From Bacteroidales bacterium (lineage in GTDB: Bacteria > Bacteroidota > Bacteroidia > Bacteroidales > UBA12077), in NCBI GenBank assembly GCA_016342685.1, contig JAEINU010000001.1, positions 824,169 through 888,168 of the forward strand: 64,000 bases of DNA, in the 5' to 3' direction. Each line of letters opens with the position of its first letter. Within the stretch, counting starts at the first letter, position 1. This document shows, piece after piece, positions 28,374 to 62,269 of the stretch. The notes below the pieces were generated by a model, which was not told the DNA's origin, searched no databases, and worked only from the letters and a program-made list of their open reading frames with translations. The translations under genes and the position numbers were made by a program.

Positions 28374-28405
28374 TTTCTCATTTTTTATACTAAAATAACT
28401 AAAAA

Positions 28406-28972: not shown

Positions 28973-29068
28973 AATTTAAATGATTATTAGTGATCCAAAT
29001 TATGAAATTTGAATCACTAAAAAAAGCGCAACCAGTAATTGTTGCGCTTAGATTTAATTTGAAATTAA

Positions 29069-37888: not shown

Positions 37889-37889
37889 A

Positions 37890-38543
37890 ATGAGCAAAAT
37901 AATTAATATAATTATTGTTGATGACCATGCAATTTTTAGAGATGGTTTGAAATCATTATTATCACAGATCCCAAATTTTTATGTTTTGGATGAAGCAAAA
38001 ACGGGATTGGATTTTTTGAATATTTTACAAAATAGAAAGCCAGATATTGTATTGATGGATATCTCGATGCCCGAGTTAGATGGGGATGAAGCCACAGAAA
38101 AGGCTTTACTACAATATCCAGATCTTAAAATAATAGCACTTTCCAGTTATAGTGATCATATTTATTACTACAAAATGATTAGAGCTGGAGTACAGGGGTT
38201 TGTATTAAAGAAATCGGGTAGAGAAGAACTTGAAGAAGCAATAAATACCGTTTTTAAGGGTGAAAACTATTTTCCTCAGGATATCTTAAGAAATTTAATA
38301 TTTAAATTAGGAAATACAGGAATTGAATCCGTTTTAGATGATCATGTTTCTCTTTCAAAAAGAGAAAAAGAAGTGTTACAATTAATTTGTCAGGGATTTA
38401 CAAATATTGAGATTGCTGAAAAACTTCACATTAGTCCTAAAACCGTAGATAATCACAGAACCAAATTGTTGTCAAAAACCAATACTAAGAATTCAGCTCA
38501 TCTTGTTATGTTTGCTATCAAGAATCACTTAATAGAAGTCTAG
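37890..38543 (+). CDS. NarL/FixJ-family response regulator (REC + LuxR-type HTH)
   Basis: REC domain (IIVDDH ... VLMDISMP ... ALSSY); LuxR HTH (REKEVLQLICQGFTNIEIAEKLHISPKTVDNHRTKL). Start is 2 bp after the kinase stop. Confidence 0.85.
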   Translation: MSKIINIIIVDDHAIFRDGLKSLLSQIPNFYVLDEAKTGLDFLNILQNRKPDIVLMDISMPELDGDEATEKALLQYPDLKIIALSSYSDHIYYYKMIRAGVQGFVLKKSGREELEEAINTVFKGENYFPQDILRNLIFKLGNTGIESVLDDHVSLSKREKEVLQLICQGFTNIEIAEKLHISPKTVDNHRTKLLSKTNTKNSAHLVMFAIKNHLIEV

Positions 38544-39100: not shown

Positions 39101-39574
39101 ATGGAGATAGACAGCAAAACACAAATTAACTCCTATTTAACGTTTAAAATTGGAGTTGAAGAGTTCGGAATTCAAGTAAATAAAGTACTAAATATTCTTG
39201 AATTGCAAGAAATTACAAATGTTCCAAAATCTCCTGAGTATATGAAAGGAGTTATTAATTTAAGAGGAACAATTCTTCCAATAATTGATACTCGGATTAA
39301 ATTTGAAATGACTCCAACTGAGTTTACAGATGATACATGTATTGTGGTGATGGATTTAGTAGTAGAAGATGAGATAATGCATGTTGGAGCCTTGGTCGAT
39401 TCTGTTGTTGCAGTTCGTGAAATTGATGAAAGTCAAATTAATCCATCTCCGAATATTGGTAAAAGTTATAAATCAGAATTTATTTCTGGACTCGTTAAAA
39501 TTAATGAAAGCTTTGTCATGATTTTGGATGTAATTAAGCTTTTTACAGGTGAAGATTTAAAGGATTTAAATTAA
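39101..39574 (+). CDS. cheW: Chemotaxis coupling protein CheW, module A
   Basis: Classic CheW core LTFKIGVEEFGIQVNKVLNILE...PKSPEYMKGVINLRGTILPIIDTR. Confidence 0.85.
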   Translation: MEIDSKTQINSYLTFKIGVEEFGIQVNKVLNILELQEITNVPKSPEYMKGVINLRGTILPIIDTRIKFEMTPTEFTDDTCIVVMDLVVEDEIMHVGALVDSVVAVREIDESQINPSPNIGKSYKSEFISGLVKINESFVMILDVIKLFTGEDLKDLN

Positions 39575-39631
39575 AAAAGGAATTATAAAATGACGTTTAA
39601 TAATTAAAAATTAGTAATAACACAATTAATT

Positions 39632-40378
39632 ATGAAAAGAAGAATAGTTTTAATAATTGTATTAATACTAATAAGCTTTAGCGGTTTTTCACAGGATATA
39701 ACATTAGTCAATAAGGATTCTAAATCTTATACCGATATAGGAGCCGATATTGTAAGTAGTTATGTTTGGAGAGGTTTGCAAGTTGATGCATCTCCTAATA
39801 TTCAAGGATGGGGAGAGTTTGGTAATAATTTTTTTAATTTTGGTGTTTGGGCTTCTAGTAATTTTAATGGAAGTTATGTAGAAGCAGATGTTTATGCAGG
39901 ATTCACAATCGGAGGATTTAACGCTTTACTAACGGATTATTTTGTGGGATCGGATGATTTTTTCAACTTTGATAAAAATACAACTACTCATGTAGCAGAA
40001 TTAGCTCTACAATACACAATAAGTGATAATTTCCCTTTGCAATTTACATTTGGAACATTAATTTTTGGAGACGATAAACAAATTGCTTCAGTTGATTTAA
40101 ATGATGATCCTGTTTTTAATAATAAGAATAATTTTTCTTCTTACATCGAACTTATGTACACAATTACACATCGAAATACTGAAATTTCATTTGTTGCTGG
40201 CGGAGTAACTCATGAAAGTTATTATTATTCCAGCGAAAGAGCTTCCATTATAAATTTGGGAGTTGTAGCTTCTAAAGAAATAAAAATTACAGATAATTTT
40301 AGTTTACCTATATCTTTTGGATTGACAGTAAATCCAGAGCTTGAGAGTATATATACTGTTGTAGGTATCACATTATAA
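39632..40378 (+). CDS. Outer-membrane beta-barrel protein, possibly TorF-like putative porin, module A
   Basis: Signal peptide; YVWRGLQVD motif resembling the TorF/Gcw_chp family; alternating beta-strand pattern; C-terminal aromatic-rich strand. Confidence 0.45.
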   Translation: MKRRIVLIIVLILISFSGFSQDITLVNKDSKSYTDIGADIVSSYVWRGLQVDASPNIQGWGEFGNNFFNFGVWASSNFNGSYVEADVYAGFTIGGFNALLTDYFVGSDDFFNFDKNTTTHVAELALQYTISDNFPLQFTFGTLIFGDDKQIASVDLNDDPVFNNKNNFSSYIELMYTITHRNTEISFVAGGVTHESYYYSSERASIINLGVVASKEIKITDNFSLPISFGLTVNPELESIYTVVGITL

Positions 40379-40401
40379 ATCATTAGATTAATTAATAAGT
40401 T

Positions 40402-42474
40402 ATGAGAACAAATTCAATAAAAACAAAACTTTCTCTTGTTTTAGGAGTGATAATATTAATTGCAATAGCAATAATAATTACGGTGTCAAGCATTAATGGA
40501 AACAAAGTTGCCATTGAGAATGCAGAAAACAAGATGGTATCTACTTTAGAGAATTCCACACAAAAACTCGAAAATATTATTAATAAAAATATTTTGGAAA
40601 TGGAAGCTCATTGGAATGATTTAAAAGTTTTGATTCAATATGAAAATTTTGATAGAACACAAGTTCAGGATATTTATAAAAATATGCTGAAAAAAGATGC
40701 TTCTGCCATTGGATATACAATATGTCTTAAGCCTGGTTGTTTTGATGGCAAATCTGATGATTATAAAGGATATCCAGGTTATTATTCTGATGGACGTTTT
40801 AGTGAGTATTTATATAAGGAAGGTAATCAAATCTTAAGAGATGAATTGACCATTTCTTTTGAACAGGATCTTCAAGAGGCAGGTTCTGATTGGTGGAGAA
40901 TACCGGAAAAGACAAAAGAAAACTTTATCTATATGGATATATACAATGTTGGTGGGAAAGACGTATTAATGGTTTCTGTTACATATACAATACTTCGTAA
41001 CAACGAATTTATTGGAGTAATATGTAAAGATTTTATTAGTGAATTTATACAGCAAGAAGCTATAGAAGCAAATAGTAAACTTTTTAAAGGTCAAGGTAAT
41101 ATAGAAATATACGATCAGGATGGAAATATAGCTGCAGATACTAAAAATGCAGAAAATGTAGGGAAGGATCTCAAAACTATATCAAATGAAAATTACTCAG
41201 AAATTATAAGTTCAATAAAACAGGGAGAAGAAAGAACTTATAAAGAAAATGGTAATTACTACTGTGTAGTTCCTATTAAATTTAATGGAAGTACATCGAA
41301 TTGGCAAATGAGAGTAGAGATTCCTGAAAATGTAATAAAAGAAAAAGCAATGTTGCTAATGAGAAATCAGCTTATAATTGGATTATTTTCAATTTGTATA
41401 AGTATTCTTATTATATTTTTAATTGTAAAAAGAATGCTTAATCCATTAAACAGTTTAACCGCCTTTTCTGAAAAAGTAGCACAAGGTATTCTTTATGAAA
41501 ATATTAATATTGACAGGGATGACGAAATAGGTCAGTTAGCTAAAGCATTTTCTATAATGATGAGTAGAATTAGAGAAGTAGTTAATGGAGTAAAAGATAA
41601 TGCCGATAATCTTGTTAGTGCTAGTCAACAATTGAGTTCAAGTTCAGAAGAAATGTCCCAAGGTGCATCCGAACAAGCATCGTCAACAGAAGAAGTTTCT
41701 TCATCAATGGAAGAGATGTCGTCTAATATTCAACAAAATACAGATAATGCACAGGAAACAGAAAAAATATCTGTTGTGGCTGCAAAAGGAATATCGGAGG
41801 TTGAAAAGGCTGCTAAAGAAAGTTTAACATCAATTAAGCAAATTGCAGATAAAATAACCATTGTTAACGACATTGCATTTCAAACGAATATTTTAGCATT
41901 AAATGCTGCTGTCGAAGCTGCTAGGGCAGGAGAGCACGGTAGAGGTTTTGCTGTTGTTGCTGCCGAAGTAAGAAAATTAGCAGAGCGTAGTAAAATTGCT
42001 GCCGACGAAATAGTTTCCTTATCTACTTATAGTGTTAAAGCAACTGCAGACGCAGGAGAACTAATGTCAAAAATAATTCCGGAGGTTGAAAAAACTGCAA
42101 GATTAGTGCAGGAGATTACTGCTGCTAGCTTAGAGCAAAATTCAGGTGCCGATCAAATAAATAGTGCGATACAGCAATTAAATCAGGTAACTCAGCAAAA
42201 TGCTGCGGCAAGCGAAGAAATGTCTACAAGTTCAGAAGAGCTTTCTAGTCAAGCTGAACAACTTAAGGATATGGTGAGTTTCTTCAAGGTAGATAATTCT
42301 GAAAATTATATGGGCGTTAGGTCTAATACTTTACAACAGTTTAATCAAGATTCAAAATTTGTAAAAACTGCAGGATCAAACGGTAGTAAGAACAAAAAGG
42401 TTCTTGATGAAAAAGGGTTTGATCTTAATTTAAATGAATCTAATAAAATAGATAATGAATTTGAATCATTTTAG
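40402..42474 (+). CDS. Methyl-accepting chemotaxis protein with periplasmic double-Cache-like sensor, HAMP and MCP signalling domain (MCP1)
   Basis: TM1/TM2 flank a ~285-aa extracytoplasmic domain; HAMP; highly conserved MCP signalling core ([40 protein letters not shown]); C-terminal NEFESF. Confidence 0.9.
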
Positions 42475-42502
42475 ATAAGGGTAGGTTTTTTTAGTTTGTA
42501 GA

Positions 42503-42534
42503 AAAGGAGGACATTATATTGTTCTCCTTTTTTA
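42503..42534 (+). terminator. Rho-independent terminator after MCP1
   Basis: AGGAGGACA / TGTTCTCCT stem followed by a T6 run. Confidence 0.55.
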
Positions 42535-42769
42535 ATTTCTAAATAATTCTGTCTGAACTTATAACTCTAAAGGTGATTTATGGTATTATCAATATGTCAA
42601 TCAATTCTATTTAAAAAGAGCAGGCTGGTATCGAATAGCAGAACCAATTTATTGTAAAAAACAATTCAAAGAATGAAGCTTATCCGATTATGTTTATTAT
42701 CTAACATTATTTACTACAGACGCATAAATTAGAAAATATTTAATTAGATCTCTCCTCGTTTTTAAAATG

Positions 42770-42814
42770 AAATTAGGGTATTTACCCTATCAATTTAGTG
42801 TTTTCCCCTCTTAT
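42770..42814 (+). promoter_or_regulatory. Conserved 45-bp inverted-repeat element, copy 2, 46 bp upstream of the cheY-like gene of module B
   Basis: Near-identical to 38586-38630; contains perfect GGGTA-TT-TACCC palindrome. Confidence 0.55.
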
Positions 42815-42860
42815 ATTTTTTCGACCATTAAGTTATTTTTGATATTTAAATAAGAAAGCT

Positions 42861-43265
42861 TTGAAAATAATAATTGTTGATGATAGTAATGTTTTTAAGG
42901 AAAGTATAAAATATTATTTGGAAAAAATGCTTTCGCATGAAGTTATTAATATGGCAGGAAATGGAGTTGAGTTTCTAAAAATAGAAGATTCATATGAGGC
43001 AGATGTTATTTTAATGGATATAGAGATGCCCCTTTTAAATGGTTTTGAAACTGCGAAAAGAGCATTGTATGAAAATCCCGCCTTGAAACTAATAGCCATA
43101 ACAAATTATTCAGATAGAGTTTATCTTGTAGATCTAATTAGTGCCGGTTTTAAGGCTTGTGTTTTTAAAAGCAATATTTACCAAGAGCTTGAAAAAGTTT
43201 TTTCCAAATTGCATTCAAAAAAGTTGTGCTTCCCCAAAAACATAATGTTAATGAATAATCAATAA
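42861..43265 (+). CDS. cheY: CheY-like single-domain response regulator (TTG start), module B
   Basis: About 60% identical to module A CheY; conserved receiver residues. Confidence 0.7.
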   Translation: MKIIIVDDSNVFKESIKYYLEKMLSHEVINMAGNGVEFLKIEDSYEADVILMDIEMPLLNGFETAKRALYENPALKLIAITNYSDRVYLVDLISAGFKACVFKSNIYQELEKVFSKLHSKKLCFPKNIMLMNNQ

Positions 43266-43283
43266 CCAAATAATATTCGAATT

Positions 43284-43787
43284 ATGGAAATAGAAACTAA
43301 AATAAAAATTGATTCTTATTTAACTTTTAAGATCGGTGATGAAGAATTTGGAGCACATGTAAATAAAGTGCTTAATATTCTTGAGTTACAAAATATTACG
43401 AAAGTTCCTAAATCTCCGGAGTATATGAAAGGAATTATTAACTTGAGAGGAAAAGTGCTTCCAGTTATTGATACTCGGATCAAATTTAATATGAATCCAA
43501 CTGAGTTTACCGATGATACCTGCATTGTAGTTATGGATCTAGAAATTGAAGATGATGTTATACATATAGGGGCTCTAGTCGATTCTGTTGTTGCTGTTCG
43601 AGAAATTGATGAAAATCAAATTAATCCTCCACCAAGTATTGGGAAAAGTTATAAGTCCGAATTTATTACAGGAATAGTTAAAGTTAATGAAAGGTTTGTG
43701 CAGATTTTGGATTTAGTAAAGCTTTTTACTGGTACAGAATTGAGTGAATTAAAGAAATCACAAAACAAGGTAAATGAAGAAGATTAA
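43284..43787 (+). CDS. cheW: Chemotaxis coupling protein CheW, module B
   Basis: About 75% identical to module A CheW. Confidence 0.85.
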   Translation: MEIETKIKIDSYLTFKIGDEEFGAHVNKVLNILELQNITKVPKSPEYMKGIINLRGKVLPVIDTRIKFNMNPTEFTDDTCIVVMDLEIEDDVIHIGALVDSVVAVREIDENQINPPPSIGKSYKSEFITGIVKVNERFVQILDLVKLFTGTELSELKKSQNKVNEED

Positions 43788-44772
43788 AATTCTATTTACG
43801 GTTTATTTACTGATTTTAACTGCAACTATGTTTGCTAATGATTCAGATTCTGTTGATATCTATCCTAAAACAAAACCAATTATTAAGGTTTTTGGGAATT
43901 ATCATTTTGGATTAAACGATTATTCAACCGTGAATGCTTTTGAACTAACAAGGGCATATTTGGGTTATGATGTAAAAGTATCCGAAAATATTAGTTTTAA
44001 AACCAATATAGACATGGGTCGACCAACATCCGATAGCAAATATGATTATGTTGCATACTTAAAAACTGCTGCTTTAAAATATCATAAAGGCAAAATACAG
44101 ATTAACGCTGGATTGATTGGTTTAAAGCAATTTAAATTGCAAGAAAAAATATGGGGACACAGATATGTTTATAAATCTCTTCAAGATGAGCATAAGTTTG
44201 GACATAGTGCAGATTTAGGTGTTATGCTAGAGTATAAACTAATTGATGGTTTATTTATAGATGCAACGATAAGGAACGGAGAAGGATATAAAAAATTACA
44301 ATCAGACGAAACCTTTAATGGAGCGCTGGGAATTACGTATCACGTTTGGAAAAATATTGTTGTAAGAGGTTCATATGAACATTCAGAGAAATCTATAAAT
44401 CAATCTGTTTATTCTGGGTTAATAGGATTTCAAATGAAAGATGTAATACTTATGGGAGTTGAATATAATTATATGCAAAACTCTTCATATATCAAAAATC
44501 ATAATTTAACTGGTTATTCTGCTTACCTAACATTTATTATGAATGATAAGTTTCAGTTATTTGGGCGATACGATAATTTGAAATCAAACAAAATAAATGA
44601 TGAAATTATTTCATGGAACGAATCAAATGATGGAGAAGCAATAATCGCAGGTGTACAATATAAATTAGAGAAGAATTTAAAGGTATCTACTAATTTACAA
44701 TATTGGGCGCCCGATAAAAATAGTTTAAATAAAGAAGTTTACGCTTTTATAAGTTTAGAGTATAAATTATAA
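43774..44772 (+). CDS. Outer-membrane beta-barrel porin-like protein, module B (family differs from the module A barrel)
   Basis: Signal peptide; ~16 amphipathic beta strands; C-terminal strand ISLEYKL; overlaps CheW-B stop by 14 bp (translational coupling). Confidence 0.45.
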   Translation: MKKIKILFTVYLLILTATMFANDSDSVDIYPKTKPIIKVFGNYHFGLNDYSTVNAFELTRAYLGYDVKVSENISFKTNIDMGRPTSDSKYDYVAYLKTAALKYHKGKIQINAGLIGLKQFKLQEKIWGHRYVYKSLQDEHKFGHSADLGVMLEYKLIDGLFIDATIRNGEGYKKLQSDETFNGALGITYHVWKNIVVRGSYEHSEKSINQSVYSGLIGFQMKDVILMGVEYNYMQNSSYIKNHNLTGYSAYLTFIMNDKFQLFGRYDNLKSNKINDEIISWNESNDGEAIIAGVQYKLEKNLKVSTNLQYWAPDKNSLNKEVYAFISLEYKL

Positions 44773-44784
44773 AAATTATAAAAA

Positions 44785-46782
44785 ATGAAAAATTTAAGAA
44801 TAGGTACAAAACTAGCTATTGGATTTATTATTGTAATTGGTATTAGTGTAGTTATTGGTCTTGTCGGTTATACAGGCATGCATTCTTTAAACGACAGAAT
44901 TGATAAAACAGAAGATGCGCACTCTGTTAGTAAAATGGCTTTAGATTTAAGAAGATATGAAAAGGACTTTATGCTTCGTCATGATGAAAAATCGATACAA
45001 GGCGGAACTAAAACCCTAGAGTCTATTTATGGTCAAATAGAAGAGTCTAAGTTGAAGTTTAAAGATCAAAAGGATTTAGATGATCTTGATGTATTAAAAC
45101 AAAAAGGAGATAATTATAAAGATGCTCTAACTGAGTATGTTAGAATTTACCAAGAAGACTATACTTTTAATATAGAGAAAACCATAAAAGAAGGAGAAAA
45201 AGCCATTGAGTTAGCTAAGGCGCTTCAATTATCTCAAAAACAACAAATGATCGATGAATTAGCAAAAGAAGTAAATAAGAATTTCTTGCTTAAACGTTTT
45301 GAAAAAAATGAACTGTCAAATGATATTCTAGAATCTTTTGCTGTAATACGTATAGATGCTAAAGGTTTTGTAATTAGTCGTGATCAAAAAGACGGCGCAA
45401 AAGTTATTGAGCAATTGGATCTTTTACTTGATAAAATTGACTATACAAAGAAGTTGATGAAAAAGAAAGTTGATATTCAGCAGCTTGAAGAGATGTATAA
45501 TGCGGTTGATGTTTATAAAAACGCTTTTGAAAAATCAGTTGAAGTTGTTGCTTTACAGGAAGATGAAGCCGATGTGATGGTAAGTTCAGCTCATGAATTT
45601 ATTGCTGTTGCTGATAAGTTAAAAGATGGTCAGTCTTTAAAAATGGTAAAAGAAGAACAGCGAGCTAGTTCTATGATTATAAGTTTTATGATTCTTGGAA
45701 TTATTTTAGGTGTTGTTATGGCATATATAATTACTCGAGGGATTATAACCGGACTTAGAAAAGGAGTCGATTTTGCAACTGCTATTGCAAAGGGAGATTT
45801 AACAGCAGAAATTGATATTGATCAGAAAGATGAAATAGGTTTATTAGCAAGATCATTAAAGATCATGGTTTTAAAACTTAAAGAGATTGTTTCTGATATA
45901 ACATCTGGAGCTGAAAATATTGCATCTGCAAGTCAGCAATTAAGTTCTGGATCAGAGGAAATGTCGCAAGGTGCATCAGAACAAGCATCATCTACAGAAG
46001 AAGTTTCATCATCAATGGAAGAAATGACTTCAAATATTCAACAAAATACTGATAATGCACAAGAAACGGAAAAGATATCAGTTATGGCAGCCAAAGGAAT
46101 CTCAGATGTTGAAAAGGCAGCTAAAGAAAGTTTAACATCGATTAAACAAATTGCAGAAAAAATTACAATTGTTAATGATATTGCATTTCAAACAAATATT
46201 TTAGCTTTAAATGCTGCTGTCGAAGCTGCTAGAGCAGGAGAGCATGGTAGAGGTTTTGCAGTTGTTGCAGCTGAGGTTCGCAAATTAGCCGAACGAAGTA
46301 AAGTGGCAGCTGATGAAATAATTTCATTATCGACATATAGTGTTAAGGCAACCGAAGAATCTGGTGAATTAATGTCTAAAATAATACCTGAAATTGATAA
46401 AACAGCAAGATTGGTGCAAGAGATTACGGCTTCTAGTTTAGAACAAAATTCAGGTGCCGATCAAATAAATGGTGCGATACAGCAATTAAATCAGGTAACT
46501 CAACAAAATGCAGCTGCCAGCGAAGAAATGTCTACAAGTTCAGAAGAACTATCTAGTCAAGCAGAACAACTTAAAGATGTTGTAAGTTTTTTCACCTTGA
46601 ATGATAAAACAAGAAATTTTAAGGGTAGTAAAAACACTTTAAAAGAATTTAAATTTGAAAAGCAAGACACACGCACAGATCGTATTAAAAAAGAATCTGC
46701 TGGTCATAGTGAAAATGCTAAAGGCTTTGATTTAAAATTGAATACAAACGACAATATGGATAAAGATTTTGAATCGTTTTAG
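44785..46782 (+). CDS. Methyl-accepting chemotaxis protein with all-helical periplasmic sensor (4HB/HBM-like), HAMP and MCP signalling domain (MCP2)
   Basis: Two TMs flank a ~265-aa helical domain; signalling domain ~90% identical to MCP1; C-terminal KDFESF. Confidence 0.9.
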
Positions 46783-47356: not shown

Positions 47357-49420
47357 ATGAAAAGAACACTTTCTATTCGGTCCAAACTAATTTATTTGGT
47401 TTTGATTACATGCATGCTTATATACTCTATAACAATTGCATACTTAATAATTAATTTAAAGTCATCATCACTAGAAGATGCTAAAAGACTGGTAGAAGAA
47501 TCAATTAAAACAGGAGCAAAAGAAATTGAAGCTGAATTGAACTTGCATATGGGGGTTGCTCGCAGTTTGGCTTATACCATGTCCGATTTCGAAAATATAT
47601 CTATTGAGAATAGAAGCCAATTTTACAATCCTATTTTAAGTAAAACATTAGATGCTAATCCGAATTACATTGGTACATATTTCACAATGGAATTAAGTGC
47701 ATACGATCCAGAATGGGGAAATGCTCCTGGCAGGGAATCAAAAATATTTTACAAAGATAAAGGAACAATTCATTACAATGAAGTTATACATGATGTTGGA
47801 GGAGTTAAGAAAAGAACAGGATATCATAAGGTAAAAGATACCATGAAGGAAGCAATATGGGAGCCATACTGGTGTGATACATATTCAACCGAAGCAGGAA
47901 GAGTACTCGAAACAACACTTGGTGTACCAATTATTATAGAAGGTCAATTCATGGGACTAGCAGGAATTGATATTGAGCTTAGTGTTTTTAAAGAATTAAT
48001 TGCTAAGATACAGCCTTTTAAGGATGGTTATGCCTTTCTACTATCGAATGAATCAACCTATGTTGCTCACCCTGATCCTGCTTGCATAGCAAAAAAATTC
48101 GATGAAGAAAATCCGGATGAAGAGCAATTGTACCATATAAGTGAAAAAATTAAAAATGGCGAAAGTTTTTCTTTTGAGGCAATACATACAGATTCAAACA
48201 ATGATTTATATGTAAAATTTGTGCCAGTGCATATCGCAAGTACTACAACACCTTGGTCACTTGGAATATTAGTTCCTATTAATTCAATTATGGTGAATTC
48301 GAACCGAATTATAAAAATCACGCTCATTGCAGGTTTTATTGGATTACTCATTCTGTTTTTAGTTATCTCAAATGTTAGCCGTAGCATTATTAAACCCATT
48401 AAGGATAGTGTTGATTTTGCTGAAAAAATTAGCCAAGGTGATTTGAATGCTAAATTAGATTTCGATTCAAATGACGAAATTGGCATTTTGGCTAAACATT
48501 TAATGAGTATGACCGAAAAGTTTAAAGAAGTTGTTGAGCAAATAAAGCAAAGCGGTGATGAAATAAATCAGGCCAGTATAAGGATTTATAAAAACTCAGA
48601 TCAACTTGCTTCAGGAGCCAATAGTCAGGTGGCAGCAACCGAGGAAGTTTCTTCTTCAATGGAAGAAATGATTGCTAATATTCAACAGAATACAGATAAT
48701 GCTCAGTTAACTGAGAAAATTACTTTGGTTGCAGCAGACGGTATAAATAAGGGAAATGCATCAACTGAAATTTCTGTAAAGTCGATGAGAAAGATTGCAG
48801 AAAAAATAACAATTATAAATGATATTGCATTCCAAACTAATATTTTAGCGCTAAATGCGGCTGTTGAAGCAGCAAGAGCAGGAGAACATGGTAAAGGATT
48901 TGCAGTTGTGGCTGCCGAAGTAAGAAAATTAGCTGAAAGAAGTAAAATTGCTTCGGATGAAATAAATCAACTTTCGCGTGAAGGAGTTCTAATTTCTGAA
49001 GAAGCTGGAGAACAATTGGCAGAAATTGTTCCAGAAATCGAGAAAACGTCAAAATTAGTTCAAGAAATTGCTGCAGCTAGTATGGAGCAAAATAGTGGTG
49101 CTGATCAAATTAATAGTGCAATACAACAATTAAATAAAATAACTCAACAAAACGCCGCTGCTAGTGAAGAAATGGCAACTAGCTCGGAAGAGCTTACTCA
49201 TCAGGCAGATCAATTAAATCATGTTGTAAGTTTCTTTAAAATTAGTGATGATTCAAAAATATACAATAGGAAAAAGTCTTTAAAACAACCTAAAGCTGAA
49301 AATTATTACAAAAACACAAATATTAAAAATGAAGATTCTATTCAAAGTAAAAATGTTAAAGGTTTTGATTTAAAGCTAAATACAACTGATAATATGGATA
49401 AGGATTTTGAATCGTTTTAG
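47357..49420 (+). CDS. Methyl-accepting chemotaxis protein with periplasmic double-Cache-like sensor (MCP3)
   Basis: Two TMs; Cache-like ~285-aa sensor; HAMP; MCP core; C-terminal KDFESF. Confidence 0.9.
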
Positions 49421-49445
49421 CAACAAAAAATAATTTTCAATTTTG

Positions 49446-49484
49446 GAAAAAAGGAGAACATATATAACATGCTCTCCTTTTTTT
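49446..49484 (+). terminator. Rho-independent terminator after MCP3
   Basis: AGGAGAACAT / ATGCTCTCCT stem plus T8. Confidence 0.55.
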
Positions 49485-49785
49485 ATTTTCTAGTTAATGG
49501 TTAAAACCCTGCAATTTCAATGTAGCTACTCTAGTTTCTATAAATTTCAATTAAAATTAAATCTACAATGTTCAAGTTTAAAGTAAATCACAAAACGTAA
49601 TATTCAAAGTCCAATATTTAGGTTTGGGTCATTAATGTGTAATGTTTTTATATTTTGAATATTGGATATTATTTGATATTTGTTAATTGTTATCTGGTGC
49701 TTGCTAAAGGAATTTTATTTGTAATCTATAGTGGTTAAGTTAAATGATGAAATAAGAATGAACAATTATTAAATTATAACTGATT

Positions 49786-49875: not shown

Positions 49876-51900
49876 ATGAAATGGAAAAATTTAAAATTAG
49901 GAAGAAAGTTTCTTATCTCTTTTGGTTTAATCATAATGCTTCTGGTTGTTGTTGCTTTTTGGTCAATTAATGGTATAGGAGGAATTGTAAATGATGCCGA
50001 AGAAGTAATCGAAGGAAATAAACTTAGAGCGGATTTGGAAAATAAATATGTTCAACATCTTCAGTGGGCATCTAAAGTAAATAAATTATTAACTGATGAG
50101 AATGAAACGGTGCTCAATGTTCAAACCGATCCACATAAATGTGATTTTGGTAAGTGGTATTATAGTGAAGGGAGAAAACATGCAGAATCGCTAGCTCCTG
50201 AATTAAAATCTCTATTCGATGAGATTGAAGAACCTCACTTACATTTGCATGAATCAGCAACAAAGATAAATAATGTTTTTCATCAGGCCGACGTAACATT
50301 TGGAGACAAGCTTAGGGATGTAAAGAGTGCTCATTTGTTATGGGCACATTCAATTAAAGATGCTTTATTGCAACAAAAAAAGACCCTTGCTGTACAAACT
50401 GATCATCATAAATGTGAATTTGGGATATGGTTGGATTCGGATGAAATTATTCAAATGAGAAAAGAAGATCCAGAGTTAGACAGGTTATTAGTTAAGATCA
50501 TAGAACCTCATGAAAAACTTCACACAAGTGCTGTTCAGATACAAAATTATCTTTCACAAAGAAACTTTAATGCAGCTTATAATTATTATAATAACAATAC
50601 AAATAATTATGCGATAGCAACTTTAGATTTAATAGATGATGTCATTGCTTGGAATGATAAACATGTCCAAGGTATGAAGGAAGCCAATGCAATTTATAAT
50701 AATGAAACATTAGTTAACCTAGAACAAGTTGGAGATTTATTTTCTAAGATAGTTGAAAAATCAAAGGAGTATATTCTTACTGAAGATGTAATGCTTCAAC
50801 AAGCGGGAATTACAAGGGTAGGAGTAATTATTTTTAGTGTAATTGCCTCATGTATAGCAATTGTAGTGGCATTTTTTATTACACGTGGAATTGTAAATCC
50901 TGTAAAAAAATCAGTTGAATTTGCAAAAAAAGTAGCAAATGGTGATTTAACTGCTACTGTTGAAATTGATCAAAAAGACGAAATAGGAGTTCTAGCAAGT
51001 TCATTGAAAGATATGGTAGGTGAGTTGCGCAAAATTGTTGTAAATATTCAGGATGGTGCAGCCAATATCACTAGTGCAAGTTTAGAGATGAGTTCAACTT
51101 CTCAACAGATGTCACAAGGTGCTTCGGAGCAGTCTACTTCAACCGAGGAAGTTTCTTCATCAATGGAAGAAATGACATCTAATATTCAACAGAATACTGA
51201 TAATTCAAAGCAAACTGAAAAAATATCATTAGCTGCTGCAGAAGGAATTACGAATGTTGCAAATGCTGCGGATGAGAGTTTAATATCTATTAAACAAATT
51301 GCAGAAAAAATTACAATAGTCAATGATATTGCATTTCAAACAAATATTTTAGCATTAAATGCTGCAGTAGAAGCTGCTCGTGCAGGAGAACATGGAAAAG
51401 GTTTTGCAGTTGTTGCTGCTGAGGTTAGAAAGCTTGCAGAGCGAAGTAAAATTGCTGCCGATGAAATTAACGATCTTTCAAGAAGTAGTTTAGACGTTAC
51501 TAATGAAACAAGTGCATTAATGAAGAATATTATTCCTGAAATTGAAAAAACAGCTAGTTTGGTGCAGGAAATTACAGCATCTAGCTTGGAACAAAATTCA
51601 GGAGCGGATCAAATTAATAGTGCTATTCAACAATTAAACCTAGTAACGCAGCAAAATGCCGCAGCAAGCGAAGAAATGGCTACAAGTTCAGAAGAGTTAT
51701 CAAGCCAAGCTGAACAGTTAAAAGATATCTTAGGTTTCTTTAAGGTTGATAGAAAAAATATAAATAAATTGGAAAGATCTTATTCTTTAAAGCCAAGCTT
51801 GTCAAAAAGTGCTTTAGGGAAAAAATCAAAGATTGATATAGTTAAGAATCAAGGCCTTGATTTAAAAGATAATCTCGATAGTGAATTTGAATCGTTTTAG
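49876..51900 (+). CDS. Methyl-accepting chemotaxis protein with two tandem periplasmic CZB (chemoreceptor zinc-binding)-like domains (MCP4)
   Basis: Between TM1 (res 12-31) and TM2 (res 313-333): HLQW...[12 protein letters not shown]...EEPHLHLH and HLLW...[12 protein letters not shown]...EPHEKLH. This matches the CZB H-x3-C ... H ... H zinc site twice. HAMP; MCP core; C-terminal SEFESF. Confidence 0.85.
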
Positions 51901-55433: not shown

Positions 55434-56993
55434 ATGAGTAAACAAGACAAAATTAAGCAACTTATTGACTTAAGAGCCGAAGCCAAATTAGGCGGTGGCG
55501 AAAAAAGAATTGAATCGCAGCATGCAAAAGGGAAAATGACTGCTCGTGAGCGTATCGAAATTTTACTAGACGAAGGTAGTTTCGAAGAATACGATATGTT
55601 TGTAACACATCGTTGTACAAATTTTGGTTTAGAAAAAACTAAAGTTTTAGGTGATGGAGTTGTTACAGGTTCTGGTACTATTGATGGCCGTGTAGTATAT
55701 GTATACGCACAAGATTTCACTGTTTTCGGTGGATCTTTATCTGAAACTTTTGCAAAAAAGATTTGCAAGGTAATGGATATGGCAATGAAAGTTGGAGCTC
55801 CAATTATCGGAATTAACGATAGTGGTGGTGCTCGTATTCAAGAAGGTGTTACCAGTTTAGCTGGTTATGCTGATATTTTCCAAAGAAACATTATGGCCTC
55901 GGGTGTTATTCCCCAAATATCCGCAATTTTTGGACCATGCGCTGGTGGTGCAGTTTATTCTCCTGCATTAACAGATTTTATTATGATGACAGAGAATTCC
56001 AGTTATATGTTTGTTACAGGTCCAAAAGTTGTTAAAACAGTAACTGGTGAAGAAATTACAACCGAAGATCTTGGTGGAGCAAATATTCACTCTTCAAAAT
56101 CTGGTGTTTCGCATTTCTTATTAGAAGACGAAGAAGAAGGTTTATTATTAATAAGAAAATTACTTAGCTATTTACCTCAAAATAACTTGGAAGAAGCTCC
56201 GGTTGTTGAATGTAATGATCCAATTGATCGTTTAGACGATGCTTTGAACGAGATTATTCCTGAAAATGCAAATCAGCCTTATGATGTAAAGGATGTAATT
56301 TACTCAATGGTTGACAATAGTGAATTTTTAGAAATTCATCGTCATTATGCTAAAAATATAGTTTGTGGTTTTGCTAATTTCGACGGAATGTCTGTTGGTA
56401 TTGTTGCAAATCAGCCTAATTTCTTAGCAGGTGTTTTAGATATTGATGCATCAAGAAAAGCAGCTCGCTTTGTTCGATTCTGTGATGCATTTAATGTGCC
56501 TATTCTTACTTTGGTTGATGTTCCTGGATTTTTACCTGGAAGTAATCAAGAATATGGTGGAATTATTACTCATGGTGCGAAATTAATGTTTGCTTATGGC
56601 GAGGCTACAGTTCCTAAAGTAACAATTACTCTTCGTAAATCATATGGTGGTGCACATGATGTAATGAGTTCAAAACAATTACGTGGTGATATTAATTATG
56701 CTTGGCCATCAGCTGAAATAGCTGTTATGGGTGCATCTGGAGCTGTTGAGGTTCTTTATGGACGCGAATTATCGAAAATAGAAGATGCCGACGAAAGAGC
56801 TAAATTTGTAGCTGAAAAAGAAGCAGAATATAAAGAGAAATTTGCAAATCCTTATCAAGCAGCTAGCTTGGGATATATTGATGATGTAATTGAACCACGA
56901 AACTCAAGATTTAGAATAATTCGTGCGTTTGAAATGCTTCAGACAAAAAAGGATACAAATCCACCAAAGAAACATTCAAATATTCCATTGTAA
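55434..56993 (+). CDS. mmdA: Methylmalonyl-CoA decarboxylase alpha subunit (carboxyltransferase)
   Basis: Strong propionyl-CoA carboxylase beta / MmdA family similarity over 519 aa; followed by delta, gamma (biotin) and beta (Na+ pump) subunit genes. Confidence 0.85.
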
Positions 56994-57003
56994 ATATTTA
57001 ATT

Positions 57004-57378
57004 ATGATTTCAGTTATAGCTAAAACAGGAACAGATTTCTCGATGGTTGCGGGATTTGGAGTTACTACCGCTATTGTTGGTTGGCTGATAGTTTTTGCGG
57101 CTTTAGTATTATTGGTTATTGTTTTTACACAAATACCAAAATTGATATACTATAATACTCGCAAAAAGCTAAAAGTTAAAAACAAAAGCGCAGTTGTTAC
57201 AGACGATGAATTGCATATTACAGGAGATGTTAATGCTGCCATTGCAATGGCATTATACATGTTTTTCGATGAAATGCACGACGAAGAAAGTAATGTAATA
57301 ACTATTAAACGTGTGAGAAAAACATATTCTCCATGGAGTTCAAAAATTTATGGATTAAGAGTTTGGCCAAGAAAATAA
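57004..57378 (+). CDS. mmdD: Methylmalonyl-CoA decarboxylase delta subunit (OadG-like small membrane protein)
   Basis: Single TM (VGWLIVFAALVLLVIVF) right after mmdA. Start set at the internal ATG, because the listed ORF overlaps mmdA by 70 bp in another frame. Confidence 0.55.
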   Translation: MISVIAKTGTDFSMVAGFGVTTAIVGWLIVFAALVLLVIVFTQIPKLIYYNTRKKLKVKNKSAVVTDDELHITGDVNAAIAMALYMFFDEMHDEESNVITIKRVRKTYSPWSSKIYGLRVWPRK

Positions 57379-57387
57379 TAAGCAAAA

Positions 57388-57813
57388 ATGAAAAAATTCA
57401 AATTTACAATAAGAGGTAACGAATACGATGTCGATATAAAAGACTTCGATGGAGATCTCGCTAAGATAGAAGTTAATGGCACTGATTATGATGTTGAAGT
57501 ACATCAAGAAGTTAAAGCTACTAAAACTCCTACATTAGTTCGCCCAAGAGTTTCTATTGACAGAAAGGATAGTAAAATTAAAAAATCTGTTAGTAACCGC
57601 TCATATGAACTTAAAGCTCCACTTCCAGGAAGTATTTTCAAAATACTTATGAACGAAGGTGATGAAGTTAAAAAAGGTGATACCATTATGATTATGGAAG
57701 CTATGAAAATGGAGAACAATATTCAATCTGAAAAAGATGGTAAAATTGTTACCATGAAAGTAAAAGAAGGTGATTCTGTTCTTCAGAATGATGTATTAGT
57801 TGAAATCGAATAG
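57388..57813 (+). CDS. mmdC: Biotin carboxyl carrier protein (decarboxylase gamma subunit)
   Basis: C-terminal biotinyl-lysine motif IMEAMKMEN. Confidence 0.8.
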   Translation: MKKFKFTIRGNEYDVDIKDFDGDLAKIEVNGTDYDVEVHQEVKATKTPTLVRPRVSIDRKDSKIKKSVSNRSYELKAPLPGSIFKILMNEGDEVKKGDTIMIMEAMKMENNIQSEKDGKIVTMKVKEGDSVLQNDVLVEIE

Positions 57814-57819
57814 TTTCTA

Positions 57820-59346
57820 ATGAAGACAATACTTAAAAATAATATGAAAAAACTTTGCTTAGTCATAGTAGCTTTTGTTTTTCTTCTTGGAAATTACTCT
57901 TTTGCCAATACTTCAGAAACCACAGATGCTCTGGTTACGGGCAAATGGGTTAATAAATCTGATGGATACAAAGTTAGAGCAGGCAGTGATGAAACAGTTG
58001 AAAGATATAAAGGAATAAAATTTGAAAAAAATCAGACATTCGTTTTAGATTCAGTTAAAATGAAATTTTCTGGTGAATGGAAAGTAATTGATAATATATT
58101 ATATCTTGAATTTAATGATCACAATATTGATCCAAAGATTGCAAGTTTCAGCGATGAAGGACTTATAATTGGAAACGATTTATATAAAAGTTATTCAGGC
58201 GCAGTTGCGGGCTTATTAAATTTTTATGAGTTTACAGGAGTGCCTAATGCTACTCCAGGCCATTTGCTTATGGTTCTGGTTGGAGTGTTCTTTATATTCT
58301 TGGCAATAAGATATAATTACGAACCTTTATTATTAATTCCGATTGGATTTGGTATCATCATTGGAAATATTCCATTTTATCAAGCCGAAGGATTTAATTT
58401 AAAATTAGGAATTTACGAAGAAGGAAGTGTAATGAGTTATTTATACTTTGGAGTTCGCCAAGGTATTTATCCTCCACTTATTTTCTTGGGAATTGGGGCA
58501 ATGACAGATTTTTCTTCATTAATTTCAAATCCAAAATTGATGATTTTAGGTGCAGCGGCTCAAATAGGTATCTTCTTAACGTTCCTTGGAGCTCTATATC
58601 TTGGATTTTCTCCAGCAGAAGCAGGAGCAATTGGAATTATTGGTGGAGCAGATGGTCCAACAGCTATTTTCTTATCGTCTAAATTGGCTCCGCATTTGAT
58701 CGGACCTATTGCGATTGCAGCATATTCATATATGGCATTGGTTCCAATTATTCAACCACCATTCATGAAATTGATTGTAACTAAAAAGGAACGATTAATT
58801 CGAATGAAACCACCACGTGCAGTTTCTAAATTGGAGAAAATTATGTTCCCGGTAGTTGGCTTGTTATTGACAGCGTATATTTCACCAAGTGCATTGCCAC
58901 TTTTAGGAATGTTGTTCTTTGGTAATTTATTAAAAGAATCAACTGTAACAAAGCGTTTAGCCGATACTGCAAGTAATGCATTAATCGATATTGTAACTAT
59001 ATTATTAGGAATAACTGTTGGAGCATCAACTCAGGCAGATATCTTTTTAACTCCACAATCTTTAAAGATTTTTGGATTAGGTGCTTTATCATTTATTATA
59101 GCTACTTGTGGTGGATTATTTTTCGCTAAACTAATGAATGTATTCTTGAAAGGCGATAATAAAATTAATCCATTAATTGGTGCAGCGGGTGTTTCTGCTG
59201 TTCCCGATAGTGCGCGTGTTGTTCAGCACGAAGGATTAAAAGCCGATCCTACAAATCACTTATTAATGCATGCAATGGCACCAAATGTTTCTGGTGTAAT
59301 TGGATCTGCAGTAGGAGCAGGTATTTTATTAAGTTTCTTAATGTAA
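57820..59346 (+). CDS. mmdB: Na+-translocating decarboxylase beta subunit (OadB/MmdB) with a ~140-aa N-terminal secreted extension
   Basis: Residues ~145-508 align with OadB (EPLLLIPIGFGIIIGNIP...). The N-terminal 140 aa have a signal peptide and a soluble beta-rich domain not typical for OadB. Confidence 0.75.
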   Translation: MKTILKNNMKKLCLVIVAFVFLLGNYSFANTSETTDALVTGKWVNKSDGYKVRAGSDETVERYKGIKFEKNQTFVLDSVKMKFSGEWKVIDNILYLEFNDHNIDPKIASFSDEGLIIGNDLYKSYSGAVAGLLNFYEFTGVPNATPGHLLMVLVGVFFIFLAIRYNYEPLLLIPIGFGIIIGNIPFYQAEGFNLKLGIYEEGSVMSYLYFGVRQGIYPPLIFLGIGAMTDFSSLISNPKLMILGAAAQIGIFLTFLGALYLGFSPAEAGAIGIIGGADGPTAIFLSSKLAPHLIGPIAIAAYSYMALVPIIQPPFMKLIVTKKERLIRMKPPRAVSKLEKIMFPVVGLLLTAYISPSALPLLGMLFFGNLLKESTVTKRLADTASNALIDIVTILLGITVGASTQADIFLTPQSLKIFGLGALSFIIATCGGLFFAKLMNVFLKGDNKINPLIGAAGVSAVPDSARVVQHEGLKADPTNHLLMHAMAPNVSGVIGSAVGAGILLSFLM

Positions 59347-59368
59347 TTTAATAACACAATTATAGATT

Positions 59369-59400
59369 CAAGGGCTGACTTTTTTAGTCGGCCCTTTTTA
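59369..59400 (+). terminator. Rho-independent terminator after the mmd operon
   Basis: AGGGCTGAC / GTCGGCCCT stem plus T run. Confidence 0.6.
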
Positions 59401-59499
59401 TTAAAATAATGTTGTTGAAAATAGCATTCAAAGCATAAAAACAAGAAACGATTATTATATTTGTATTGTAATGAATAGACATCCTAAAAATTATTAAAT

Positions 59500-60732
59500 A
59501 TGAGTAATAAAATTGCTAACGCCGGAAACATTGGCAAAAAAGTTAGATCAGATTGCTATGTTACTCTTGAATTAAAAGATTCGGGAGGAATAGTAATCAA
59601 TCAAAAGAGCAAGGTGCAGGTTCTTTATGGCGATTCTAATAATGAATTATGTAAAGATGTATTAAGCTTTTTCGGAATTGAAAATGCAATTCTAACACTT
59701 GAAGATCGCGGAGCTCTTCCTTTGGTAATTGCTGCAAGAATTGAAGCTGCAATTAAAACTCTAATTGATACGGATAAAGAATATCTTCTTGATTTTATCG
59801 ATGAAAATAATTACACATCAGAAAAAGAACAATTTCGTTTTTCAAGATTATACTTGCCAGGTAATAGTCCTAGCATGATGTTAAATGCAGGTATTCACGA
59901 GCCAAATGGTATTATTTTGGATTTAGAAGATTCTGTAGCATACAACAAAAAAACAGAAGCGCAGCATTTAGTGCGTAATGCGCTTCGTGGAATTAATTTT
60001 TATGGTGCTGAACGTATGGTGCGTATTAATCAGTTTCCTAAAGGGTTAGAAGATTTAAAATACCTTATTCCACATAATGTTCATATGTTGTTGGTTCCAA
60101 AATGTGAAGGTGCCGATCAAATTAAACAACTCGAAAAAAAGATAGTAGAATTAAAATCACAACATAAAGTTACTCATTCAATTTTCTTAATGCCAATTAT
60201 TGAAAGTGCATTAGGTGTTGAGAAAGCATTTGAAATTGCTACAGCATCAGAAAATGTTGTTGCTTTGGCAATTGGTCTTGAAGATTATACTGCTGACCTA
60301 GGTACTCGTCGTACAAATGAGGCAACGGAATCTTTCTATGCAAGAAGCAGAATGGTTAATGCATGTAAGGCAGCAGGTATTCAGGCAATTGATTCTGTTT
60401 TTTCTGATGTTGGAGATATGGAAGCATTAAAAGCAAATGTAAAGGTTTCTAAAGGATTAGGATTTGAAGGAATGGGATGTATTCATCCTCGCCAGATAAA
60501 AGTTATTCATGAGAGTTTTGCTCCTGAAGCGGCAGCGATTGATAAAGCAATGAAAATTGTTAATGCATTTATCATTGCAACAGAAAAAGGTTTGGGAGTT
60601 GTTTCATTAGGAACAAAAATGATTGATCCACCTGTAGTAAAAAGAGCAGAAAAGACAATCAATTTAGCAATTAGTTTAGGTTTAATATCTGAAAATTGGA
60701 GAGAGGATTTTTTAAATGAGCAAGCAGGTTAA
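59500..60732 (+). CDS. citDE: Fused citrate lyase acyl-carrier (gamma, CitD) and citryl-CoA lyase (beta, CitE) subunits
   Basis: N-terminal ~95 aa resemble CitD (CYVTLELKDSGGIVIN...ALPLVIAARIEAAI). Remainder is HpcH/CitE family (RLYLPGNSP...EDSV). 3' end overlaps citF by 17 bp. Confidence 0.7.
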   Translation: MSNKIANAGNIGKKVRSDCYVTLELKDSGGIVINQKSKVQVLYGDSNNELCKDVLSFFGIENAILTLEDRGALPLVIAARIEAAIKTLIDTDKEYLLDFIDENNYTSEKEQFRFSRLYLPGNSPSMMLNAGIHEPNGIILDLEDSVAYNKKTEAQHLVRNALRGINFYGAERMVRINQFPKGLEDLKYLIPHNVHMLLVPKCEGADQIKQLEKKIVELKSQHKVTHSIFLMPIIESALGVEKAFEIATASENVVALAIGLEDYTADLGTRRTNEATESFYARSRMVNACKAAGIQAIDSVFSDVGDMEALKANVKVSKGLGFEGMGCIHPRQIKVIHESFAPEAAAIDKAMKIVNAFIIATEKGLGVVSLGTKMIDPPVVKRAEKTINLAISLGLISENWREDFLNEQAG

Positions 60733-62269
60733 AAATGCTGTGGGACGTATGGTTCCTACAGAGATAAACGGAGAAGAAGTAATTCCTTTTAAGGGAATAG
60801 GAAAACATAAACCAACAGGACGTAAATATGCGCCGCCAATTCCAACGGTACTTGATTATCCCGAAGATGGAAATAAGGTTGTTGGATCATTAAAAGAAGC
60901 ATTAAAAAAGTGCGGTTTGTCTGATGGAATGACAATTTCTACGCATCACCATTTACGGAATGGTGATTTGGTTAGTAATACCATTTTTGATGCTGCAAAA
61001 GAAATGGGAGTCAAGGATTTAGTTTGGTTTCCATCAGCATCATTTCCATGTAACGAACCAATTATGGTGTACTTGGAAGATGGTACAGTAAATCGTATCG
61101 AAGGAAGTATGAACGGACCTTTAGGAAGGTTTGTATCACAAGGAAAGATGAAAGGAACTGCAGTTTTGCGTTCTCACGGTGGTCGTGCACAAGCAATTCA
61201 GGATGGTGAAGTGAAAATCGACATTGCTGTTTTAGCGGCTCCATCGTCTGATTTATTTGGTAATGCGAATGCTTTAAGCGGTCCTTCTGCATGTGGTGTA
61301 CTAGGTTATGCAACTACAGATTTTTTATATGCCGATAGAGTAATCGTAATAACAGATAATTTGGTTGATTTCCCAAATATGCCAATGGAAATCCAAGGTA
61401 ATTATGTTGATTTTGTTGTTGTTGTAGATAAAATTGGAATTCCTGAAAGAATTGTTTCTGGAACAACACAAATTACAAAAAGCCCTGATAGATTATTAAT
61501 TGCTGAGCTTACTGCTGACTTTTTACAAGAAAGTGAAATCTTGAAAGATGGTTGCTATATGCAAGCAGGAGCGGGTGGAACTTCATTGGCAATTGGTCAT
61601 TATCTTCATCAGATATTAAAGGAAAAAGGATGGAAATCGAAATTAGGTTTTGGCGGTAGTACAAAATATATGGTTCAAATGCTTGAAGAAGGCACTATGG
61701 AACATATCATGGATGCTCAGGCTTTTGATTTAGATGCTGTTGCTAGTATTGCAAATAATAAAAATCATCATCAATATCCCGTGTTCAATGCCTACAATTT
61801 TCATTCAAAAGGAAATTTAACATCTATGATGGATATTATGATTTTGGGTGCTACTGAAGTTGATGTAAATTTTAATGGAAATGTTGCCACACATTCCGAT
61901 GGTTACTTATTACATGGTATTGGTGGATGGCAAAATTGCTTGCATGCAAAGAATGTGATTTTACCAATTCCTTTATTTAGAGATCGTATTTCTGTTATTA
62001 AAGATGAAGTTACTACGATTTGCGGACCAGGTGAAATGATTGATATTATTGTTACTGAACGTGGTATTGCAATTAATCCACGACGTAAAGATTTAATTGA
62101 GAAGATGAAAAATAGTTCATTGCCAATTAAAACAATCGAAGAATTAAAAGCAGAAGCAGAAGCTATTTGCGGACCTGCTCAGAAACCAAATATTTCTGAT
62201 GAAGTGGTTGCTGCAATTAAATGGGTTGATGGAACTGTAATTGATGTAGTTCGAAAAGTGATTGATTAG
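60716..62269 (+). CDS. citF: Citrate lyase alpha subunit (citrate CoA-transferase), paralogue 1
   Basis: Full-length CitF similarity (GRMVPTEINGEE...ISTHHHLRNGD...). Confidence 0.85.
   Translation: MSKQVKNAVGRMVPTEINGEEVIPFKGIGKHKPTGRKYAPPIPTVLDYPEDGNKVVGSLKEALKKCGLSDGMTISTHHHLRNGDLVSNTIFDAAKEMGVKDLVWFPSASFPCNEPIMVYLEDGTVNRIEGSMNGPLGRFVSQGKMKGTAVLRSHGGRAQAIQDGEVKIDIAVLAAPSSDLFGNANALSGPSACGVLGYATTDFLYADRVIVITDNLVDFPNMPMEIQGNYVDFVVVVDKIGIPERIVSGTTQITKSPDRLLIAELTADFLQESEILKDGCYMQAGAGGTSLAIGHYLHQILKEKGWKSKLGFGGSTKYMVQMLEEGTMEHIMDAQAFDLDAVASIANNKNHHQYPVFNAYNFHSKGNLTSMMDIMILGATEVDVNFNGNVATHSDGYLLHGIGGWQNCLHAKNVILPIPLFRDRISVIKDEVTTICGPGEMIDIIVTERGIAINPRRKDLIEKMKNSSLPIKTIEELKAEAEAICGPAQKPNISDEVVAAIKWVDGTVIDVVRKVID

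Follow-up and report, generated by a model that had tools for sequence, protein, structure and literature searches.

Two tandem CZB domains in the sensor of a Bacteroidales chemoreceptor, probably periplasmic and predicted to stack along a shared return helix

The Zn2+- and Cys-dependent signalling of the CZB domains of DgcZ, TlpD and McpA provides the mechanistic precedent for proteins of this family (PMC8262984; preprint 10.64898/2026.07.03.735341). The DgcZ enzyme is inhibited by bound zinc and freed from this inhibition when hypochlorous acid (HOCl) oxidises the Cys (PMC8262984). In TlpD and McpA, taxis toward oxidants requires the Cys. It has also been argued that CZB domains read external redox via the pool of bioavailable Zn2+ (2026 preprint 10.64898/2026.07.03.735341). 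A putative periplasmic CZB subgroup of membrane-bound chemoreceptors, with a poorly conserved position 2 of the Cys motif, was already noted by Perkins et al. 2021 (mBio, PMC8262984), and Ortega & Krell 2020 found the CZB domain in N-terminal position in 61% of 184 CZB chemoreceptors carrying a pentapeptide, the pentapeptide being located on the signalling domain (PMC7390727). Here we describe a methyl-accepting chemotaxis protein (MCP) with two complete CZB units between its transmembrane segments, encoded in a stretch of 64,000 nucleotides (hereafter, the window; all coordinates refer to it) from a Bacteroidales bacterium (assembly GCA_016342685.1, contig JAEINU010000001.1, positions 824,169 to 888,168 of the forward strand). 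We hold it rather probable that these units form two stacked periplasmic bundles that signal via Zn2+ occupancy or thiolate oxidation.

The gene itself, its domains and motifs, their conservation and the distribution of the family are established. The open reading frame (ORF; 49876..51900, + strand, 674 residues) is present exactly as described in the original prediction, which was made from the DNA letters and placed two copies of the CZB signature between two transmembrane helices. Pfam recovers CZB (PF13682) over two stretches of the whole protein (E=5.3e-27, 94.4 bits), and each repeat scanned separately exceeds the gathering score of 29.4 bits (residues 61-131 with 62.4 bits and residues 152-221 with 46.3 bits). 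The motifs lie where they had been announced: HLQW at 61, HKCDFGKW at 87 (Cys89) and PHLHLH at 120 in the first repeat, and HLLW at 153, HKCEFGIW at 178 (Cys180) and PHEKLH at 211 in the second. Both repeats hold a set of three His and one Cys (3His/1Cys), with one His on α1, the Cys in a CxxGxW turn and an HxxxH pair on α3. They are 41% identical (39/95), and their profile-profile comparison across 172 homologues gives E=3.5e-39, far from what chance would produce. The score of the hidden Markov model, the ligand set and the predicted fold all place the protein in the CZB family. Pfam yielded no match for residues 229-314 scanned alone, nor any match to HBM (PF16591) in the protein at E values up to 1. 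At the C-terminus, after a linker, EFESF matches the pentapeptide motif x[W/F]xxF, in which positions 2 and 5 are by consensus aromatic (PMC7390727).

The protein has two hydrophobic segments, with Kyte-Doolittle peaks at residues 13-31 (2.75) and 317-335 (3.08). The first (transmembrane segment 1, TM1) is a stretch of 23 hydrophobic residues preceded by five Lys/Arg among residues 1-12, and the second (TM2) leads straight into a HAMP domain followed by the MCP signalling domain, so that the protein is a two-pass (class I) transmembrane chemoreceptor of a Bacteroidota bacterium. Since the HAMP and signalling domains after TM2 must be cytoplasmic (CheW, CheA), residues ~35-314, which comprise the CZB pair, would lie across the membrane, and we strongly infer from the sequence that they are extracytoplasmic. 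The term periplasmic appears apt because a neighbouring gene encodes a type IX secretion system sorting domain and the closest relatives (68-69% identity over the sensor) belong to Bacteroidales metagenome-assembled genomes, both of which indicate a diderm host. We also scanned GTDB, with one genome per species, and found 514 relatives, the best 80 loci of which were analysed and yielded 79 proteins. Both transmembrane segments are found at the same positions in all 79, which are two-CZB homologues from many phyla, and hydropathy, the positive-inside rule, the position of HAMP and conservation all agree on a periplasmic sensor. The contrary case, with TM1 not inserted in the membrane and the CZB pair in the cytoplasm as in TlpD, could draw on the weakness of the Pfam match of this region to 4HB_MCP_1 (PF12729), which is marginal and below cut-off (12.8 versus 27 bits, E=0.09, limited to residues 5-46 around TM1). 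It is nevertheless already disfavoured, and in our view scarcely credible, given the length and hydrophobicity of TM1 behind its basic N-terminus and the fixed positions of both segments across phyla; moreover, with TM2 inserted ahead of HAMP and the signalling domain, the N-terminal region would be on the opposite side whatever TM1 does. The original interpretation of two complete periplasmic CZB units is thereby supported, and what is not supported is the claim that such a placement is unusual, since Perkins et al. had noted it (PMC8262984) and N-terminal CZB domains form the 61% of the 184 receptors mentioned above (PMC7390727).

Conservation is focused on the putative metal sites. H61, W64, D85, C89, G92, W94, H121, H125, H153, C180, G183 and H212 do not vary across 21 two-CZB homologues, and H216 is kept in at least 90% of them, so that all eight putative Zn ligands are conserved. 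P108, L124 and L215 are invariant too, as are G33 and I37 where TM1 reaches the periplasm; W64, D85, G92, W94, G183, L124 and L215 sit in or beside the ligand motifs. The 3His/1Cys ligands are invariant in 29 aligned repeat units, and most homologues have exactly two periplasmic Cys, both of them putative ligands. These data bear on the idea that the Zn sites are structural staples of a helical stalk, the real chemoeffector, whether small molecule or periplasmic binding protein, docking at another place on the sensor, such as the dimer interface (as in Tar) or an interface of the TorS-TorT type. Such a design does not sit well with a sensor whose invariant residues are Zn ligands and residues in or beside the same motifs, with no second conserved patch, nor with the fact that all characterised CZB domains signal via the Zn/Cys site. 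Furthermore, a conserved partner (Zn transporter or binding protein) was sought by neighbourhood clustering of the 80 loci and none was found, which leaves the receptor with no conserved binding-protein gene beside it. We therefore consider structural staples unlikely, if still deserving of some weight.

The two units have a long separate history. In a neighbour-joining tree of repeat units, every first unit, the sole unit of single-CZB receptors among them, falls in one clade and every second or third unit in another. It follows that the duplication is ancient and that the positions cannot be exchanged. Two other scenarios were discarded: a recent lineage-specific duplication is ruled out by these same clades, and degeneration of the second CZB by the fact that its four ligands are all conserved.

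The fold and the stacking of the sensor are predicted. Using the alignment of 21 two-CZB homologues as input, AlphaFold2 (AF2) produced a confident model of residues 1-345 (predicted local distance difference test, pLDDT, 88.6; predicted template-modelling score, pTM, 0.70) in which the sensor would adopt a four-helix bundle fold like that of the DgcZ CZB. Helix 8-73 corresponds to TM1 running on as α1 and bears H61, helices 90-95 and 98-106 begin directly after C89, and helix 108-134 is α3, with H121 and H125. The distal unit comprises helices 142-165 (H153), 181-186 and 189-197 (after C180), and 199-227 (H212 and H216), after which the chain returns as one unbroken helix of 69 residues (231-299, block pLDDT 93-98), followed by helix 303-344, which contains TM2. 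Homologues differ in their number of CZB units, and the length of the sensor scales with it. From one to five units, the distance from TM1 to TM2 is 182, 306, 430, 551 and 680 residues, and that from the last HxxxH to TM2 is 70, 105, 141, 174 and 206 residues (medians over 39, 171 and 39 proteins for one to three units; one protein each for four, P0071, and five, P0064). Each extra unit thus brings ~91 residues of α1-α3 and ~35 residues of tail. Complete units number five in P0064 (1028 residues), four in P0071 (899 residues) and three in P0007 (561 residues, partial); P0064 has five complete ligand sets and then five segments of the return-helix type, and the AF2 return helix of P0007 (322-426, pLDDT 94-98) is continuous over 105 residues, compared with 69 when there are two units. 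In addition, hhalign shows homology between one half of the return helix (~232-264) and the other (~268-300), with a probability of 96.9% (E=1.4e-10), against 1.9% in the control comparison of the return helix with a CZB unit.

Because the length scales with unit number, the return helix is continuous and its halves are homologous, we predict stacked four-helix bundles with the layout (α1α2α3)n(α4)n, n being 1 to 5 across homologues and the present protein corresponding to (α1α2α3)2(α4)2. The chain would run from TM1 through α1-α3 of the proximal bundle and α1'-α3' of the distal bundle into the return helix, whose halves would supply the fourth helix of the distal bundle first and of the proximal bundle next, before reaching TM2. 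The first CZB would accordingly be membrane-proximal and the second membrane-distal. This CZB architecture, nested, stackable and with one to five sites, appears undescribed: the searchable literature, which does not include the original 2011 CZB paper, contains no description of tandem or multiple periplasmic CZB domains or of their arrangement. With five units in the stack, the return helix would measure ~200 residues and, if straight, would near or exceed the usual width of the periplasm.

The receptor type is widespread in anaerobic sediment bacteria, and our gene is one of hundreds of database members. The best 80 of the 514 GTDB relatives all span the whole sensor, and every one of the recovered proteins (79/79) is a two-CZB receptor. 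A search of 1.84 billion representative proteins retrieved 1643 clusters at E≤1e-3 and 285 at E≤1e-30, and the homologues are named in the sources only as ‘CZB domain-containing protein’ or ‘methyl-accepting chemotaxis protein’. Two-CZB members occur in Bacteroidales/Marinilabiliales (Carboxylicivirga, Saccharicrinis, Plebeiibacterium, Salinivirga), Desulfobacterota (Maridesulfovibrio, Pseudodesulfovibrio, Desulfuromonadales), Spirochaetota, Planctomycetota, Zixibacteria, Latescibacterota, Nitrospirota, Fibrobacterota and others, and these lineages are mostly sediment anaerobes. This distribution raises the question of the stimulus, as the 3His/1Cys sites might sense something other than Zn2+ or HOCl that is relevant to anoxic, sulfidic habitats, such as Fe2+, Co2+, Ni2+, Cu+ or Cd2+, or else sulfide/polysulfide or O2/H2O2 acting on a metal-thiolate, in which case the receptor would guide the cell along the oxic-anoxic interface. 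In agreement with this possibility, the family is concentrated in lineages of anaerobes and sediments (Marinilabiliales-like Bacteroidales, Maridesulfovibrio/Pseudodesulfovibrio, Desulfuromonadales, Spirochaetota, Zixibacteria, Latescibacterota and Planctomycetota), and the window contains genes for a carboxyltransferase, the beta subunit of a Na+-translocating oxaloacetate decarboxylase and citrate lyase (an acyl carrier protein-CitE fusion and CitF; 55434..62269, +), a set typical of anaerobic citrate fermentation and suggesting this metabolism in the host. The recent model in which CZB domains read external redox through Zn speciation points in the same direction (preprint 10.64898/2026.07.03.735341). 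However, every CZB tested binds Zn2+ and the sequence gives no hint of metal preference, and we regard a different stimulus as improbable; it would in any case overlap with the sensing of Zn2+ or oxidants that we favour, differing only in the identity of the stimulus.

As for the mechanism, we infer the metal, the ligand and the signalling path by analogy with characterised CZB proteins. Each bundle would most likely hold one Zn2+ by its three His and one Cys, and the receptor would most likely serve the direct sensing of periplasmic Zn2+ availability or oxidants. The Zn site would link α1, which prolongs TM1, with the Cys turn and with α3, and no ligand would come from the return helix. The signal could be either occupancy of the site by periplasmic Zn2+ or oxidation of the Zn-bound thiolate. 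Gain or loss of Zn, or thiolate oxidation, would alter the packing of α1-α3 against the return helix, itself continuous with TM2, and this change might displace TM2 and HAMP, act on the signalling hairpin and modify the control of CheW/CheA. The EFESF pentapeptide would recruit the adaptation enzymes. A CZB in the periplasm would have direct access to extracellular Zn2+ or redox state, which cytoplasmic CZB receptors sample indirectly.

Several points weigh against this proposal. No member of the periplasmic subgroup is known to have been characterised experimentally. Searches of PDB sequences with the protein or its sensor and with a profile of 29 repeat sequences find no solved CZB structure, and the link to DgcZ and TlpD is made through the Pfam model and the predicted fold, without detectable pairwise similarity to DgcZ. 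Stacking and ligand geometry are deduced from helix lengths, confidence scores and length scaling, not from measured distances, and the AF2 model is a monomer whereas receptors are dimers. In the neighbourhood clustering of the 80 loci, no zinc-homeostasis genes recur beside the homologues. Finally, DgcZ has a sub-femtomolar affinity for Zn (PMC8262984); with a similar affinity, the sites described here may be permanently occupied, and Zn would then not be a variable signal.

Table 1. Coordinates of the double-CZB receptor gene, its parts and the neighbouring chemotaxis genes in the window
Feature	Residues	Position	Strand	Basis or remark
Whole gene		49876..51900	+	674-residue transmembrane MCP with double-CZB sensor; ORF list and Pfam
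TM1	~12-34	49909..49977	+	Kyte-Doolittle peak 2.75; kept in homologues; inside AF2 helix 8-73
Membrane-proximal CZB unit (predicted), α1-α3	~45-134	50008..50277	+	Pfam CZB, 62.4 bits; AF2 helices
Putative Zn ligands, proximal unit	H61, C89, H121, H125	50056-50058; 50140-50142; 50236-50238; 50248-50250	+	
Membrane-distal CZB unit (predicted), α1'-α3'	~142-227	50299..50556	+	Pfam CZB, 46.3 bits; AF2 helices
Putative Zn ligands, distal unit	H153, C180, H212, H216	50332-50334; 50413-50415; 50509-50511; 50521-50523	+	
Return helix (predicted)	231-299	50566..50772	+	AF2 helix, block pLDDT 93-98; homologous halves
TM2	~315-337	50818..50886	+	Kyte-Doolittle peak 3.08; AF2 helix 303-344; position kept in 79 homologues
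HAMP domain	334-385	50875..51030	+	Pfam PF00672, E=1.8e-9, 38.2 bits
MCP signalling domain	442-609	51199..51702	+	Pfam PF00015, E=3.2e-31, 108.9 bits; canonical hairpin tip
C-terminal pentapeptide EFESF		51883..51897	+	Putative CheR/CheB tether; from sequence
cheW genes		39101..39574; 43284..43787	+	
MCP, PDC-type sensor		40402..42474	+	
MCP, HBM sensor		44785..46782	+	Pfam HBM match
MCP, dCache sensor		47357..49420	+	

Of the four MCP genes on the + strand, the double-CZB gene comes last, with two cheW genes and three MCP paralogues upstream (Table 1). The four MCPs have cytoplasmic domains that are 57-73% identical, all end in [DE]FESF and carry four different sensor types, so that they look like sensor-swapped paralogues feeding one pathway. 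Across the 80 homologous loci, the recurring neighbours are CheW (18), CheA (7) and generic PAS proteins (23), with cheW adjacent in 18/80. Chemotaxis has been little studied in Bacteroidota. The region 39101..46782 (+) consists of two repeated modules, each made of a cheW gene, an unknown gene and an MCP gene. The middle gene is a 248-residue ORF without Pfam match (39632..40378) in the first module, that of the PDC-type MCP, and codes for an outer-membrane beta-barrel-like protein with a marginal Pfam score (43774..44772) in the second, that of the HBM MCP; an outer-membrane protein gene sitting between cheW and an MCP gene is unusual. Visual inspection revealed an imperfect hairpin with a T-run behind it (aaaggagaacat...atgctctccttttttt; 49440..49495, +) directly past the dCache MCP stop codon. 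This arrangement suggests that the double-CZB gene, with its upstream region of 455 bp, is transcribed separately. This hairpin is not listed by a consensus terminator scan. A sigma-70 promoter scan gave fewer matches than shuffled sequences, the sigma-70 consensus being uninformative for a Bacteroidota genome.

The rest of the window holds a HAMP-SpoIIE (PP2C phosphatase) membrane protein gene (8759..10765, +) and a gene for a 1030-residue protein combining an nSTAND1 NTPase domain with a WD40 beta-propeller (12146..15238, +), the latter followed by a gene for an outer-membrane beta-barrel protein (15240..16274), an unannotated ORF of 397 residues and the gene of a 2303-residue protein with Ig-like repeats and the type IX secretion sorting domain (17517..24428, +). 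Further along, a small gene of the YdeI/OmdA family separates two prolyl oligopeptidase (S9) genes, which are paralogous ORFs of 694 residues each (26289..31153, -). A PAS-PAS histidine kinase and a LuxR-type response regulator are encoded at 35885..38543 (+).

Whether CZB domains sense zinc, bleach or, by way of zinc availability, external redox state is under debate, and all of the work on this question concerns cytoplasmic proteins, which see the outside only indirectly. The same Zn/Cys site in the periplasm would offer a direct test of whether CZB domains read extracellular Zn2+ or oxidants, and the series from one to five sites is a natural experiment on the relation between site number and sensitivity. 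The predicted assembly of several bundles on one return helix is, moreover, an unusual means of lengthening a sensor. A more ambitious proposal, to which we would give somewhat less than even odds, is that these proteins constitute an undescribed class of extracytoplasmic poly-CZB rod sensors, (α1α2α3)n(α4)n, possibly gauging external Zn2+ or redox in a cooperative way and steering anaerobes along oxic-anoxic gradients. If this were true, each module would add one Zn/Cys site and ~35 residues of return helix, and these rods would provide the first demonstrated case of a chemoreceptor class that reads extracellular metal at a periplasmic site dedicated to it. The weight of the present case is limited by the facts that the periplasmic placement was already published, that the protein is one of hundreds of similar entries and that its function is deduced by analogy.

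Compared with known systems, the receptor most resembles the periplasmic CZB subgroup (PMC8262984, PMC7390727), with which it shares an N-terminal CZB region between the membrane segments of an MCP and a Cys motif with a variable second position, CxFGxW in this case; like the N-terminal-CZB receptors (PMC7390727), it has a pentapeptide fused to the signalling domain. It departs from these accounts (PMC8262984, PMC7390727) in its tandem CZB units, their predicted stacking and the shared return helix, which are not mentioned there. The CZB of E. coli DgcZ (PDB 3T9O/4H54) is cytoplasmic and single, controls a GGDEF domain and pairs side by side with its partner as a dimer interface; it is N-terminal (PMC8262984), not the C-terminal module that the original prediction had assumed. 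In H. pylori TlpD and Salmonella McpA, as here, the CZB is coupled to an MCP signalling domain, and Zn/redox sensing is proposed to occur through the conserved Cys; unlike the pair described here, which lies upstream of TM2 and HAMP, theirs is a single cytoplasmic domain C-terminal to the signalling domain. In overall shape, the best whole-length Foldseek matches, weak as they are (E about 0.1-0.3), are the HBM sensor of McpS (2YFA/2YFB), the TorS sensor (3O1H) and PilJ (7ZJR). These sensors are likewise elongated, with a proximal and a distal four-helix bundle, and the likeness is one of shape only: the known examples recognise organic ligands or a partner protein instead of a metal at a site of His and Cys, and their helix order differs from the one predicted here, in which serial three-helix units are followed by one return helix.

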